A stretch of 64,000 nucleotides of DNA from Minisyncoccota bacterium (GCA_041665925.1 JBAYHW010000004.1:10703-74702), one strand, 5' to 3'; numbered from the stretch's first letter, positions 45,278-50,314 are shown. Notes: generated by a model not told the origin, from the sequence alone. Numbers and translations are program-made.

Positions 45278-47395
45278 TTATTGTTTAGGTTTGTTAGCGT
45301 TTGAGTCAGGCTTAGGTGTGGAAGAAGGTCCTTTTAGAGAATTAACATACTCTGCAATATCTTTATTGTTTTTTGATAAGACTAAAGCTTTTTCGGCTAA
45401 AGACAAGGCTTCACTTGTATCGCCTTCACTCTTAGCTATCTGAGAAAGTATAAGTAAAGCATCAATGTAGTCTGGCTTGAGTTCGAGTGCAGAGTTAGCA
45501 TAATCTTTAGCAATTTTTGTCTTACCATCAGAAAGTGATACCTTAGCCATAGAAAGTTTTATTCCTGGATTTAGTGGATTAAGATTTGATGCAATTTGAT
45601 AAGCTTCTACTGCTTTAGGATATGCGTCTTTTACTCCAAGGGCTCCTGCGGTATTATAAACAGCCCCGAGCAATAAGAAGTTAATATAATTTGAAGGATT
45701 TTGAGCGACAGCAAGTTGAGAACTTCGGACTGCTTGATCGAAACTAGCTTGCAGTTCTGTTTTTTCCTGCTCAGATAATGCTGAACCTTTATTAGCCAGA
45801 GAACCTAATTTAGCAATATATATCTGCGAATAAGTACGTAAATATAAATCATTAGAATATAAAGAAATAGCTTTTCCTATGTTGGCCTCTGCGTCAGGTA
45901 CAGTAGTAGCACTTACTGCTTTCCCAAAATAAGAAATAGATGCAAACCTTTCTATATATTTGAATGAAGTAGCCACGGCTAGAATTATCAAAAGGATAAG
46001 CCCCATAATAGAGAAGAAACTTTTCCTATGATCATTTAAGAATGAAATTAAAATATGTTCATCTTTCCCTGCTGTAGCTAAACCTATGAAAATCCCAGTA
46101 AAAGACAAAGCAAGTAAGAATATAACAGGTCCAGCAGAATAAAAGAATAATGAGATATATAAATAAAGCGACAAAACAAAGAAGGCTATCATCTCAGAGT
46201 TCACACCCTTTTTAATACTAGAAAATATTGATTTCGAGCCCATCACTAAAAACAAAACTAGAAAAACTATCCAGGCTAGAATACCAAGACCTCCGGTAGT
46301 AGCTGTAAGTGTCGACAACAATCCTGAACCTGATTCAAAATAAACATCCCAGAACTCGATACCATTAATCGCTGCTGTATTTATTTCTATAGGTTTATAC
46401 ATAGCCCAAGCTTCACCGAATCTATTTGGCCCCATTCCTAAAATTGGATCTTTAAGTAAAACTCCTTTGGTCGTAGACAGTGTTGCAGAAAAAGAAGGGC
46501 CGATTTCGGTATTAGAAATTTTTAGAAGATTTGAAATAGTACTACCAAGATACATCGGACCTACTTTGGGAATAGGAATTTGCGGATTTAAAAAGAACAA
46601 CAGAGCAACAATAACTATAACAAATGAAACGGTAGGAAAATTCTTTTTCTTATCTTCCTCTGAAGTTTGCTGAAAAGACAATGAAGCTTTATAAACAAAT
46701 ATTATAAGAGCAGATATGCCGAGAAGAATCCAGGTTAAATAAAAGTTTACGGTCGCCACCAGCAAAACAGAAAGTAGGATAAATATTTGTAAAATAATTT
46801 TTACGATTTTTGAAACTGGAAAAAATTCAACAACTAAAAGAAACATTAAACAAGCAAAACCAGAAAATAGCCCGAGCACATTCCACGAACCCAGTAAATT
46901 CGCAGTTTTCCCTGACAATATCCCAAGAGATAAAGTATCGGGCACAAATAAATGCAGAGTTTGAAAAATAAGCAGAACTGCTGAAGAAAGAATGATGCCA
47001 AGCAGGACCATCTTTGCTTGTTTGGAAGTTCTGAAAATCACTGAAGATAAAAACATTAAAATAAAACCAGCAAAAATAAACCAAAAGCTCCGAGGGTCGA
47101 ACATCGTTCCAAACATTGACGCCTGAGAATTAGAAGAAAGTAATGCAGAAAATAAAAAAACTATTACTATCCCAAGTCCTGAAACTAAAATCCATGATTT
47201 GGGTAAAACTATTTTTCCATCAAAAAATCTCGCCATTGCCCAAAAAATAATACCAATAGCCAACCCTAAAACCAAAAGTAAGCCTTTGGAAATTTCTACT
47301 GGAATGTTCGTAAAGGGTAAACAAAACAAAGGAAGTAAAACAACGACTACGGCTAATGTTAAAAATGACAATCTATCAAAAATATTTGAATTCAT
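45278..47395 (-). CDS. O-antigen ligase/polymerase-like membrane protein with C-terminal TPR repeats
   Basis: Many TM helices incl. Wzy_C-like block; TPR-like repeats in last ~200 aa. Confidence 0.6.
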   Translation of the reverse strand: MNSNIFDRLSFLTLAVVVVLLPLFCLPFTNIPVEISKGLLLVLGLAIGIIFWAMARFFDGKIVLPKSWILVSGLGIVIVFLFSALLSSNSQASMFGTMFDPRSFWFIFAGFILMFLSSVIFRTSKQAKMVLLGIILSSAVLLIFQTLHLFVPDTLSLGILSGKTANLLGSWNVLGLFSGFACLMFLLVVEFFPVSKIVKIILQIFILLSVLLVATVNFYLTWILLGISALIIFVYKASLSFQQTSEEDKKKNFPTVSFVIVIVALLFFLNPQIPIPKVGPMYLGSTISNLLKISNTEIGPSFSATLSTTKGVLLKDPILGMGPNRFGEAWAMYKPIEINTAAINGIEFWDVYFESGSGLLSTLTATTGGLGILAWIVFLVLFLVMGSKSIFSSIKKGVNSEMIAFFVLSLYLYISLFFYSAGPVIFLLALSFTGIFIGLATAGKDEHILISFLNDHRKSFFSIMGLILLIILAVATSFKYIERFASISYFGKAVSATTVPDAEANIGKAISLYSNDLYLRTYSQIYIAKLGSLANKGSALSEQEKTELQASFDQAVRSSQLAVAQNPSNYINFLLLGAVYNTAGALGVKDAYPKAVEAYQIASNLNPLNPGIKLSMAKVSLSDGKTKIAKDYANSALELKPDYIDALLILSQIAKSEGDTSEALSLAEKALVLSKNNKDIAEYVNSLKGPSSTPKPDSNANKPKQ

Positions 47396-47443: not shown

Positions 47444-50314
47444 TTATATCACTATGTTGATAAGTCGGTTTTTGACGTATATTACTATTTGTGGAACTTT
47501 CCCTGCCATGTGCCGAATTACTGACTCATCCGCCAATGCCTGATTCTTGATTTTTTCTTCAGTATCCCCCGCTCCTATCATAATCTCAGCCCTGACTTTG
47601 CCATTTATTTGGACTGCAATTTTTATCTCATCATCTTTTATTAGTGTTTCATCCCATTTTGGCCATATGGAAACATTGATAGATTTTTTCCCACCCGTAG
47701 TTAACCACATCTCTTCGGCAATATGTGGAGCAAAGGGAGAAAGTATTTGTAAGAATTTTTTATAATCTTCTTTTTCTACCCTTTCCGCCTTTTCCATTTC
47801 TGTGGCTAAAATCATTAGTGCCGAAATTGCTGTATTGAAATCCATACTTTCGATGTCTTCTGAAACTTTTTTTATAGTCTTGTGTAATAATTTTGGAACA
47901 GAAGAATTCTGAACGGTGTAGGTCCCACCCGTTACTCCGGGAAGGGTTAAGCCGGAAGAATTTTTCTGTTTCAAAATTTTCTCCCCTATTCGCCAAACTT
48001 TTTCAACAAATCTACGGGCACCAATAATGCTTTCTGTAGACCACGCCACAGACTGATTAAAAGGCCCCATGAACATTTCATAAATACGTAAAGTATCCGC
48101 GCCATAAGTTTTTACTATTTCATCTGGATTTATCACATTCCCGAGAGATTTAGACATTTTAACTCCCCCTTCGCCCAAAATCATCCCATGCGAAGTGCGT
48201 TTCTTATAAGGCTCTGGCGTCGGCACTAGTTTTAAATCATACAAAAACTTGTGCCAAAATCTTGAATATAATAAATGCAGAGTCGTGTGCTCGTTGCCAC
48301 CGTTATACCAATCCACCGGCGTCCAGTATTTTAAATTCTTCTTATCGGCAAAAGATTTGCTGTTCCTGGAGTCGGTGTAACGCAAATAATACCAACTAGA
48401 CCCTGCCCAGTTTGGCATGGTGTCTGTCTCTCTTTTTGCCGGCCCTTTACACTTCGGACATTTAGTATTAACCCATTTGGAAATATTGGCTAAAGGAGAT
48501 TCCCCAGAATCTGTTGGCTGATAATTTTTGACTTTCGGTAGTTCAACAGGTAAATCTTTCTCAGACACTGGCACAAGCCCACATTTTTCACAATGGACCA
48601 CTGGTATCGGCTCTCCCCAATATCTCTGCCTAGAAAACACCCAGTCTCGAAGCTTAAATGTAGTTTTTTCTTTCCCGCCCACAAATTTTATTATTTCTTT
48701 CTTGGCTTGCTCAGAATCCATCCCTGAAAATTCACCTGAGTTATGAAGTATTCCTTCGCCAGAATAAGGTTTTTCTTTACCCTGTAGCATCTCTAAATCT
48801 CGAAGAGATCCACCTATGGTCATCTTTTTTTCTAGTTCTTCCATGGTCATCCATTTTAATTCATGTATTTCTTTCTCTTCTTGAGCTAATTCTTTTTGTT
48901 CATCGTCAATAAGCTCAAAATAAAAGTTCGAGAAGTGAGCAAAGCGATTTTCTTTTTTAGGAACATGATAAAACTTGCTATGTGAGCGTGGAAATTCTTT
49001 TATAAATTTAAAATTTTGATACCCCGTTTCTTCTTTTATTTCTCGAATTGCTGCGATTTTTGGGTCCTCTCCTTCTTCAACTCCGCCTGTTACAAAAGTA
49101 AGCCAATCTACTTTTTTCCATTTCAAGGCTAAATATTTATCTTCCGACCAGTGTTTTATTATAGCGTGTATTGCTTCTCTTTCCACAAACGATAAATCTT
49201 CTTTGGGATTGTCTGAAAATACTGGTTCAATGACTTGTATAACCGGCAAATTAAATTTAGTAGCAAATTCAAAATCCCGCTCATCGTGTGCCGGCACAGC
49301 CATTATTGCCCCAGTGCCATAGTGTGGCAATACATAATCCGCAATCCATATTGGAATTTCTTCTTTTGTCGCAGGATTAATTGCCTTTACTCCTTTTAGC
49401 TCTACCCCTGTCTTTGTTTTATCTTCGGCCGTTCGCTCTATCTCAGTTTCCTTTTTTACTTTTTTAATATAATCCTCAACTTCACTCCAATTCGTAATTC
49501 GTGATTTCAAATTCGCAATTAACTGATGCTCAGGAGCCAAGACTAAATACGTCGCTCCGAAAATAGTATCTGGTCGCGTGGTGAAAATTTTAATTTCACC
49601 CATTTCTTTTATTTCAAATTCTATCTCCGCGCCTTCGGACTTCCCTATCCAATTTCGTTGCGCAAGTTTTATTTGCGGTAAATAATCAACGGTATCTAGA
49701 TCTTTATCTAGTCTTTCTGCATATTTGGTAATTGCTAGCATCCATTGTTCTTTCTCTCTTTTTTCTACAGGAGTCCCACATCTTTCGCAATTTCCCCCTA
49801 CCACCTCCTCATTAGCCAAACCTATTTTATCTTTTGGGCACCAATTGATGGCAATACGCGCTTTATAGGCAAGACCTTTTTTAAAAAATTGCAAAAATAT
49901 CCACTGTGTCCATTTGTAATATTTTGGATCGGTGGTGTTCACCTCTCGAGACCAATCGAAAGAAATACCGAGGGATTTTATTTGTCTTTTAAAATTCTCA
50001 CTATTTTTTTTCGTAACTACTCGCGGGTCCTTACCTGTTTTGATTGCAAAGTTTTCTGTAGGTAATCCGAAGGCGTCCCAGCCTATTGGGTATAAAACAT
50101 TGAAACCTTCAAGTCTGCGCTTCCTGGAAATAACATCCATACCAATGTATGGTCTAGGGTGCCCCACATGAAGCCCGTCCCCAGATGGATATGGAAACTC
50201 AATAAGACTGTAGTATTTAGGTTTTTTAGATTTATTCTGAGCGTGATAAATACCTTTTTTCTCCCATTCATTCTGCCACTTTTTTTCCAGCTTCAAATGC
50301 TCATATGCTTTCAT
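47444..50314 (-). CDS. leuS: leucyl-tRNA synthetase carrying an inserted NUDIX hydrolase domain
   Basis: HVGH, KMSKS, TTRPDT and AHDERD editing motifs; NUDIX box GGVEEGEDPKIAAIREIKEETGY at aa ~409-431. Confidence 0.9.
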   Translation of the reverse strand: MKAYEHLKLEKKWQNEWEKKGIYHAQNKSKKPKYYSLIEFPYPSGDGLHVGHPRPYIGMDVISRKRRLEGFNVLYPIGWDAFGLPTENFAIKTGKDPRVVTKKNSENFKRQIKSLGISFDWSREVNTTDPKYYKWTQWIFLQFFKKGLAYKARIAINWCPKDKIGLANEEVVGGNCERCGTPVEKREKEQWMLAITKYAERLDKDLDTVDYLPQIKLAQRNWIGKSEGAEIEFEIKEMGEIKIFTTRPDTIFGATYLVLAPEHQLIANLKSRITNWSEVEDYIKKVKKETEIERTAEDKTKTGVELKGVKAINPATKEEIPIWIADYVLPHYGTGAIMAVPAHDERDFEFATKFNLPVIQVIEPVFSDNPKEDLSFVEREAIHAIIKHWSEDKYLALKWKKVDWLTFVTGGVEEGEDPKIAAIREIKEETGYQNFKFIKEFPRSHSKFYHVPKKENRFAHFSNFYFELIDDEQKELAQEEKEIHELKWMTMEELEKKMTIGGSLRDLEMLQGKEKPYSGEGILHNSGEFSGMDSEQAKKEIIKFVGGKEKTTFKLRDWVFSRQRYWGEPIPVVHCEKCGLVPVSEKDLPVELPKVKNYQPTDSGESPLANISKWVNTKCPKCKGPAKRETDTMPNWAGSSWYYLRYTDSRNSKSFADKKNLKYWTPVDWYNGGNEHTTLHLLYSRFWHKFLYDLKLVPTPEPYKKRTSHGMILGEGGVKMSKSLGNVINPDEIVKTYGADTLRIYEMFMGPFNQSVAWSTESIIGARRFVEKVWRIGEKILKQKNSSGLTLPGVTGGTYTVQNSSVPKLLHKTIKKVSEDIESMDFNTAISALMILATEMEKAERVEKEDYKKFLQILSPFAPHIAEEMWLTTGGKKSINVSIWPKWDETLIKDDEIKIAVQINGKVRAEIMIGAGDTEEKIKNQALADESVIRHMAGKVPQIVIYVKNRLINIVI

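Follow-up and report, generated by a model that had tools for sequence, protein, structure and literature searches.

A Nudix hydrolase domain nested within the editing domain of leucyl-tRNA synthetase in a Minisyncoccota bacterium and its relatives

Results

The leuS gene and its product

The window analysed here is a 64,000-nucleotide stretch of DNA from a Minisyncoccota bacterium (GCA_041665925.1, JBAYHW010000004.1:10703-74702), and our subject is its leuS gene, which encodes a bacterial-type leucyl-tRNA synthetase (LeuRS) with a Nudix domain nested inside the CP1 editing domain. The open reading frame (ORF) is unbroken on translation of the window and encodes 956 residues, with the following features, given in window coordinates:

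47444..50314, minus strand: leuS, bacterial-type LeuRS with nested Nudix domain (ORF, TIGR00396, 1h3n alignment, AF2/Foldseek)
50159..50170, minus strand: HIGH signature HVGH, residues 49–52, class I synthetic site (motif search)
49223..49645, minus strand: N-terminal part of the CP1 editing domain, residues ~224–364 (PF13603 at residues 220–368, profile positions 1–146 of 185)
49565..49582, minus strand: TTRPDT editing motif, residues 245–250 (motif search)
49274..49291, minus strand: AHDERD editing motif, residues 342–347 (motif search)
48779..49222, minus strand: nested Nudix domain, residues 365–512, replacing the 8-residue loop 365–372 of Thermus thermophilus LeuRS
49019..49087, minus strand: Nudix box G410–Y432, Gx5Ex7REUxEExGU, with catalytic residues E425, E428, and E429 (motif search)
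48965..48982, minus strand: X-loop segment HSKFYH, residues 445–450, with Y449 17 residues past the box (motif search)
48647..48778, minus strand: C-terminal CP1 remainder, residues ~513–556, GILHNSGEF ... LRDW (Thermus alignment, second PF13603 stretch)
48146..48160, minus strand: KMSKS loop, residues 719–723 (motif search)

The TIGR00396 (leuS_bact) model matches the whole protein with 1001.9 bits (cut-off 548.4) in two stretches parted by the insert, with the Pfam families tRNA-synt_1, PF13603 (the editing domain), Anticodon_1, and NUDIX (PF00293) all recognised. Alignment with the LeuRS structure 1h3n gives an E value of 4e-221, and a full-length AF2 model, with a mean predicted local distance difference test score (pLDDT) of 86.8, returns exclusively LeuRS structures as its top Foldseek matches. 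The HIGH, KMSKS, TTRPDT, and HDxRD motifs are invariant or nearly so among 105 LeuRS sequences, with residues H49, G51, and H52, H343, D344, R346, and D347, and K719, S721, K722, and S723 all invariant. Judged by its sequence, the leuS product is a bona fide bacterial LeuRS, functional-looking and with synthetic and editing motifs intact; the preliminary description of this locus, made from the window sequence, had likewise regarded both editing motifs as intact.

The protein shares its domain order with the LeuRS enzymes of T. thermophilus (1H3N/2BYT) and E. coli (4AQ7), as well as the HIGH/KMSKS, T-rich, and HDxRD motifs, the Zn-binding module, and the C-terminal tRNA-binding domain, with sequence identities of 38% to Thermus LeuRS and 33% to E. 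coli LeuRS, and template modelling (TM) scores of 0.7–0.8. In contrast to Thermus LeuRS, it carries a 148-residue Nudix domain in place of loop 365–372, and lacks the leucine-specific domain (Thermus residues ~581–636), which is wholly missing at residues 715–719 (48158..48172, minus strand) and in all 120 aligned relatives. As these relatives include Nudix-free forms, the Nudix domain is no substitute for the leucine-specific domain. A Gly/Ser/Thr-rich segment of the anticodon-binding domain (residues 786–803; 47906..47959, minus strand) has pLDDT values below 50, and varies from 8 to 54 residues over the aligned interval among relatives.

A complete Nudix domain within CP1

Query residues 3–364 and 513–715 align with residues 3–364 and 373–580 of T. 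thermophilus LeuRS (1h3n), with the 148 residues between them (365–512) standing where Thermus has an 8-residue loop. The net gain of ~140 residues agrees with the ~135 additional residues claimed in the preliminary description, and the text quoted there, including HAIIKHWSEDKYLALKWKKVDWLTFVTGG and GGVEEGEDPKIAAIREIKEETGY, is an exact translation of 48785..49201 on the minus strand. That description placed the insert after CP1, which requires correction, as ~45 residues of the editing domain follow the insert. Within CP1, a surface loop is occupied by a complete Nudix domain of ~148 residues, an insert within an insert.

The assignment to the Nudix family rests on profile, motif, and fold. The whole protein matches PF00293 with 64.2 bits, and the insert alone with 69 bits (E = 5e-19), against a gathering score of 21.1, and the Nudix box GGVEEGEDPKIAAIREIKEETGY fits Gx5Ex7REUxEExGU at each position. 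In the full-length AF2 model, pLDDT values are 93–97 over residues 360–512 and are high in both linkers, and a domain-only model (pLDDT 91.0; predicted TM score 0.86) presents strands and helices in the expected order. Searching the PDB with Foldseek matches the domain to whole single-domain Nudix enzymes of 133–148 residues with TM-scores of 0.7–0.78, with the predicted model containing the complete alpha/beta/alpha Nudix fold. The proposal of a fused LeuRS-NUDIX architecture is thus fully borne out by profile, alignment, and models. None of the solved LeuRS structures matched by Foldseek has a domain at this CP1 loop, and the possibility that the insert is a normal CP1 or leucine-specific segment is ruled out by the Nudix profile and fold matches. 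No Hint/intein or transposase family is found among the Pfam matches of the protein, and the junctions of the insert, VIEPVF... and ...GKEKPYSGEGIL, carry no Cys/Ser/Thr-HN signature. The GC content of the insert is 34%, compared with 38.5% for the whole gene.

Conservation of the Nudix domain

The insert is considerably more divergent than its host, with a mean identity to the window protein of 47%, compared with 75% for the LeuRS core. Across 115 LeuRS inserts, residues G410, G411, E425, E429, and K453 are nonetheless each 100% conserved, R379 and W488 99%, E428 and E480 98%, N456 97%, R457 96%, H484 95%, and K400 93%. Within the X-loop, F448 is conserved in 90% of inserts, with position 449 occupied by Tyr in 66% and Phe in 30%. 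Whilst the box of the window protein is canonical, approximately one quarter of the inserts and all of the standalone copies described below carry a variant box in which the first Glu is replaced by Gln, and the Arg by Ala, Met, or another residue; these forms still keep ExxEE. Relative to the two closest relatives (L006 and L007), non-synonymous divergence (pN) is 0.09 in the insert and 0.15 in the core, with an omega of ~0.06 that is only indicative, as synonymous sites are saturated (synonymous divergence, pS, 0.67–0.83). Given near-fixed catalytic residues at 47% insert identity, together with the low pN, the Nudix domain is under strong purifying selection as a predicted enzyme.

Distribution of the LeuRS-Nudix architecture

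The identical protein is recorded in NCBI, JGI, and ENA as a protein of a Candidatus Paceibacterota metagenome-assembled genome (MAG). Of the 120 best-matching LeuRS relatives (65–79% identical), more than 100 have a precomputed PF00293 hit, amongst them UniRef A0A0G1GK41 and A0A0G0QTG5 from Nomurabacteria genomes of 2015. When GTDB species representatives were scanned with two narrow peptide patterns, 54 loci of the Nudix clade were located in as many different assemblies, with 39 inside LeuRS ORFs and 15 in standalone ORFs of 158–195 residues; the apparent complementarity of standalone and embedded forms rests on these 54 genomes. The LeuRS-embedded loci are titled Nomura-, Moran-, Azam-, Colwell-, Sung-, and Taylorbacteria, Paceibacterota, and others, where taxonomic labels of relatives, here and below, are the submitters' own. 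An exhaustive hidden Markov model (HMM) search of 1.84 billion cluster representatives (clusters at 50% identity) returned 294 clusters at E <= 1e-10, 79 of them at E <= 1e-30; the best 150 comprise 106 LeuRS or LeuRS fragments, 35 short standalone proteins, and nine others (LeuRS fragments, one prolyl-tRNA synthetase (ProRS), and Nudix-only proteins). The LeuRS-Nudix architecture is usual across much of the Parcubacteria/Paceibacteria, and the Nudix domain belongs to a compact clade found almost only in LeuRS of Patescibacteria, a small group of class II ProRS, and standalone genes of ~160 residues.

In five LeuRS proteins (P0075, P0088, P0089, P0105, and P0111), the hairpin that precedes TTRPDT, likewise a loop of CP1, holds a second Nudix copy, and two further LeuRS carry three Nudix copies per polypeptide (P0147, 1140 residues; P0148, 941 residues). 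This hairpin (residues 233–241; 49592..49618, minus strand) is a second insertion hotspot, ranging from 22 to 395 residues among the 120 relatives, with the window protein having no insert there. Its cargo differs by lineage (P0038, P0076, P0095, P0100, P0111, and P0113), and includes DUF559/REase_MTES_1575 endonuclease-like, alpha/beta-hydrolase, and Ham1/ITPase domains, a nucleotidyltransferase-like piece, and a second Nudix domain. The CP1 loops of these organisms are hotspots of domain accretion.

Nudix-free LeuRS enzymes occur in at least three lineages among Nudix-bearing ones, with core identities of 81–87%, as judged from nearest-neighbour identities and a distance tree (all trees here are distance-based neighbour-joining trees, which carry no support values). 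LeuRS P0060 has a plain 30-residue loop at the Nudix site, while in P0102, P0122, and P0128 the deletion also takes part of the C-terminal CP1 segment. P0128 (locus L060, 2299..4665, plus strand) is a LeuRS of 788 residues in which the Nudix domain and GILxNSG...KKEII are deleted, with TTRPDT and HDERD kept. Its gene order is that of the window (methyltransferase, DUF5671, leuS, a membrane protein of ~700 residues, and MurJ), from which we infer that the insert was lost there. Since close, syntenic relatives have lost the domain, LeuRS does not need Nudix to work.

Related domains in ProRS and standalone genes

Members of the same Nudix clade are found in a second, unrelated synthetase. P0290 (locus L061, 2906..4837, plus strand) is a class II ProRS (TIGR00408, 585.8 bits; cut-off 437) with the Nudix domain nested between the anticodon-binding and C-terminal domains, and four further ProRS clusters (P0295–P0298) share this architecture. 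The nearest Nudix-free relatives of these ProRS are, by label, Nanoarchaeota or Woesearchaeota MAG proteins, that is, DPANN archaeal. The ProRS Nudix modules are 37–45% identical to the LeuRS inserts (E values of 1e-30 to 1e-43), similar to their closeness to one another, and in P0290, P0295, and P0296 the first half of the Nudix box is degraded. The gene adjoining P0290 shows weak similarity to the archaeal ribosomal protein L18e.

The standalone members, of ~160 residues, start 5–10 bp downstream of a HAD-IA phosphatase gene, with the HAD neighbour being a generic HAD-IA. At the loci L002 (9400..10486, plus strand), L004 (3089..4103), and L005 (969..2034), for example in Staskawiczbacteria, the arrangement HAD-IA phosphatase, Nudix, hypothetical, cupin, and DUF4015 is conserved, and the variant box (GQT...A/M-E) is present throughout. 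The standalone N-terminus EPLF resembles the LeuRS flank IEPVF, and in the distance trees the standalone copies nest among the inserts, which together suggest that the standalone genes derive from an embedded copy.

Gene neighbourhood

The neighbours of leuS (methyltransferase, DUF5671, a 705-residue membrane protein, and MurJ) give no functional hint for the Nudix domain. The membrane protein, directly downstream of leuS (45278..47395, minus strand), is multi-pass, ends in a TPR-like tail, has no Pfam match on record, and is kept at the same place in a Nudix-free relative (691 residues). Seven tRNA genes lie between 4461 and 31946 (two Glu, and one each of Ser, Val, Phe, Arg, and Gly), none of which is tRNA-Leu. 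No other Rfam family was found in the window at threshold, and no Nudix box besides that in leuS was found in the 64 kb.

Discussion

The LeuRS-embedded Nudix domain resembles the small Nudix polyphosphate hydrolases (1F3Y, 3I7U, NUDT2 4IJX, CT771, Ndx1, and Rv2985) in its complete fold, size (~135–150 residues), canonical box, aromatic residue at +17, and several conserved basic residues, but is only 16–25% identical to them, is nested in a synthetase, and forms a clade of its own (294 clusters at E <= 1e-10). The best PDB sequence match of the insert is the lupin Ap4A hydrolase 1f3y (E = 9.5e-7, over ~39 residues around the box), with a profile search adding NudI and NudB. Its fold neighbours include the Aquifex, human, and Chlamydia (CT771) hydrolases of diadenosine tetraphosphate (Ap4A), T. 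thermophilus Ndx1 (Ap6A), Mycobacterium tuberculosis Rv2985 (ApnA), DIPP/DDP1, and NudI, whereas structures of ADP-ribose pyrophosphatases give lower TM-scores (~0.5). A substrate with a long polyphosphate chain is suggested by four conserved Lys/Arg residues and by the activity of fold neighbours on Ap4A, Ap6A, PP-InsP, or NTPs, and the near-invariant basic residues would fit a molecule with multiple phosphates.

Residue Y449 lies 17 residues after Y432, the end of the box, and a Tyr ~17 residues past the Nudix box has been linked to ApnA hydrolases (Srouji et al. 2017, PMC5389931, citing Dunn 1999). The same Nudix box and +17 Tyr are seen in E. coli RppH/NudH, an RNA pyrophosphohydrolase that is also an Ap5A hydrolase, with Y449 in the same register as RppH Y77 in an alignment restricted to the box. 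The insert falls outside the RppH equivalog, scoring 35–40 bits against cut-offs of 116–118, although the RppH models are its best NCBIfam matches.

Motifs of other Nudix subfamilies are absent from the insert. The X-loop proline reportedly found at ~+15/16 in ADP-ribose pyrophosphatases is not present in the insert, where +15 and +16 are K447 and F448. CoA pyrophosphatases bear an upstream LLTxR...FPGG element, the NuCoA motif. Reading of residues 365–512 reveals neither this motif nor SQPWPFPxS, the latter being the motif of NADH pyrophosphatases, as a conserved proline downstream of the box is of ADP-ribose pyrophosphatases (PMC5389931). The MutT models TIGR00586 and NF008044 score 19–22 bits against cut-offs of 98–148, placing the insert outside that family. 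The preliminary description suggested that the domain possibly clears Ap4A or aberrant adenylates in cis, which stands as a hypothesis only. Aminoacyl-adenylates were set aside as Nudix substrates on chemical grounds, being mixed anhydrides and thus not nucleoside-diphosphate-X compounds, which makes them chemically unlikely substrates.

The strongest argument for a role tied to the synthetases comes from distribution, with one narrow Nudix clade found in two unrelated synthetases and at three LeuRS sites, which argues that the association is functional and not accidental. We therefore tentatively favour, with a confidence a little short of even, the reading that the synthetase carries an active pyrophosphohydrolase of the ApnA/Np4N type. 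Clearance of ApnA appears the most likely role because both host synthetases, which would have captured the clade independently of each other, share adenylate chemistry, namely the use of ATP, an aminoacyl-AMP intermediate, and the Ap4A side reaction. Synthetases are known to make Ap4A and can Ap4-cap RNA, giving Np4 caps (PMC9437257). The Nudix domain would act as a Mg2+-dependent pyrophosphohydrolase on a nucleoside polyphosphate; as the synthetase converts aminoacyl-AMP and ATP to Ap4A in its side reaction, the domain would hydrolyse Ap4A and similar dinucleoside polyphosphates, or Np4-type products, where they arise or close by, in cells probably equipped with very few other enzymes for nucleotide house-keeping. 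Attachment to the synthetase would raise the local concentration and ensure that the two enzymes are expressed together, and would not be mechanistically obligatory.

Several observations weigh against ApnA clearance. The insert scores far under the RppH, MutT, and NudE equivalog cut-offs, its similarity to characterised Nudix enzymes is weak (E ~1e-6) and mainly confined to the box, and the +17 Tyr is replaced by Phe in 30% of inserts. The variant box of approximately one quarter of the inserts and of all standalone copies may change their activity. LeuRS is not known to be among the strongest producers of Ap4A in E. coli. The losses in close relatives show that there is no obligatory coupling of Nudix to LeuRS and, together with the existence of standalone copies, argue against a strict requirement for action in cis. 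A general role in nucleotide sanitising would account no less well for the HAD-IA phosphatase beside the standalone copies and for the Ham1 insert.

Such a role is the main rival to an ApnA hydrolase, namely an uncoupled house-cleaning pyrophosphohydrolase of (d)NTPs or non-canonical nucleotides (of the MutT, NudI, or NudB type), lodged in a permissive loop of an essential, constitutive gene, with fusion serving streamlining. This is unlikely in our estimation, though not without support, with fold and profile neighbours including NudI, NudB, MutT-like proteins, and MutT1, the position of standalone copies 5–10 bp past a HAD-IA phosphatase recalling the classic pairing of Nudix and nucleotidase, a Ham1/ITPase domain present in another CP1 loop of P0113, and the insert lost from close, syntenic relatives. 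However, the repeated capture of this clade by synthetases (three LeuRS sites and ProRS) is hard to explain if the host is arbitrary. Those of the best 150 clusters that are neither LeuRS nor standalone are LeuRS fragments, one ProRS, and Nudix-only proteins. The scores of the MutT models, far under their cut-offs, also speak against it.

A mature tRNA has a base-paired 5'-monophosphate end, which sits poorly with an RNA-directed, RppH/NudC-like Nudix that strips a 5' pyrophosphate, or a nucleotide cap such as Np4A or NAD, from a tRNA or another RNA bound to the synthetase. This reading, which we consider improbable, draws on the RNA pyrophosphohydrolase models being the best NCBIfam matches, on the binding of tRNA acceptor ends by both LeuRS and ProRS, and on the Ap4 capping of RNA by synthetases (PMC9437257). 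The scores of these models are well short of their cut-offs, the CP1 site of LeuRS and the site after the anticodon-binding domain of ProRS differ widely relative to the tRNA, and the clade also has standalone copies.

The diversity of unrelated domains at the second hotspot (residues ~233–241), the DUF559/REase_MTES_1575 endonuclease-type inserts among them, the Nudix copies at multiple sites, and the repeated losses might be taken to indicate a mobile or neutral in-frame cassette, with Nudix a passenger in a CP1 loop hotspot and of little selected function. We regard this as quite improbable, as the catalytic and phosphate-binding residues are near-invariant in 115 inserts, the insert shows no higher pN than the core in comparisons with the closest relatives, and the large majority of members of a deep radiation have the Nudix site filled. 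Furthermore, the window protein has no Pfam match to an intein/Hint or transposase family, and the GC content of the insert is close to that of the gene.

It is very improbable that the domain is a non-catalytic module that regulates LeuRS, either by sensing nucleotides or as an appendage with a structural or tRNA-binding role, in the manner of NrtR or CFIm25. The first half of the box is degraded in one quarter of the inserts and in the ProRS P0290, P0295, and P0296, the fold matches include the non-enzymatic AraR, NrtR, and mitoribosomal L46, and the high pLDDT of both linkers in the model suggests rigid docking on CP1. In contrast, the box of the window protein is canonical, the three metal-binding Glu residues and E480 are 98–100% conserved even in variant-box forms, and Nudix-free relatives retain an otherwise identical LeuRS.

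The probability of an artefact, produced by chimeric assembly or by a frameshift that joined leuS to a Nudix gene beside it, is negligible: this reading is prompted solely by the metagenome-assembled nature of the contig, with no evidence found for it, the ORF is continuous, the LeuRS sequence resumes in register past the insert, the identical protein stands in NCBI, JGI, and ENA records, and an assembly error, which the preliminary description had considered, is ruled out by the same architecture, with the same junctions, recurring across more than 100 LeuRS from independent assemblies and across 39 species representatives of GTDB.

Descriptions of synthetases with new catalytic domains mostly concern eukaryotes. 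A parallel is NF040702, an IleRS with an N-acetyltransferase domain, which is likewise a class I synthetase bearing a second, unrelated catalytic domain, but differs in the added domain (GNAT rather than Nudix) and in the host synthetase. That NCBIfam has this model shows such exceptions to be known to its curators. NCBIfam release 20 contains no curated model for a leuS with Nudix, and NCBI names the LeuRS-Nudix proteins only as 'class I tRNA ligase family protein', a demotion of these essential enzymes by annotation pipelines that the architecture explains. A full-text search of the literature found no description of the LeuRS-Nudix architecture, and tRNA synthetases are nowhere mentioned in a large Nudix review (PMC5389931). 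The remark in the preliminary description that no described LeuRS with an internal NUDIX domain was known therefore holds for the literature searched, whilst the architecture itself is common and has been visible in the automatic domain annotations of public sequences since 2015. A survey of nested domains lists CP1 (PF13603), itself an insertion into a Rossmann fold, as 'insertion-exclusive', with zero cases as a host (Protein Sci 2026, PMC13114784). In contrast to that survey, PF13603 hosts Nudix here and in more than 100 relatives, and in some of these several other domains, and the LeuRS-Nudix family is a counter-example to its generalisation on the LeuRS editing domain.

The architecture gives the proofreading domain of bacterial LeuRS a second, predicted active site across much of the candidate phyla radiation (CPR), mirrored in DPANN-like ProRS. 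It amounts to a natural 'Rosetta-stone' fusion, pointing to a functional link between the adenylate chemistry of synthetases and Nudix polyphosphate hydrolysis, and offers a candidate route of Ap4A or nucleotide turnover in genomes of minimal metabolism. It is possible, if doubtful, that a dedicated 'synthetase-associated' Nudix clade has been repeatedly recruited into surface loops of CPR LeuRS, at up to three sites, and of DPANN-like ProRS, because such ultra-reduced cells would need adenylate side products (Ap4A/Np4N, and possibly Np4-capped RNA) destroyed where the synthetases form them. If true, this would be the first LeuRS editing domain known to host another enzyme, and would represent a previously unrecognised layer of quality control or alarmone control in the translation apparatus of ultra-reduced cells.

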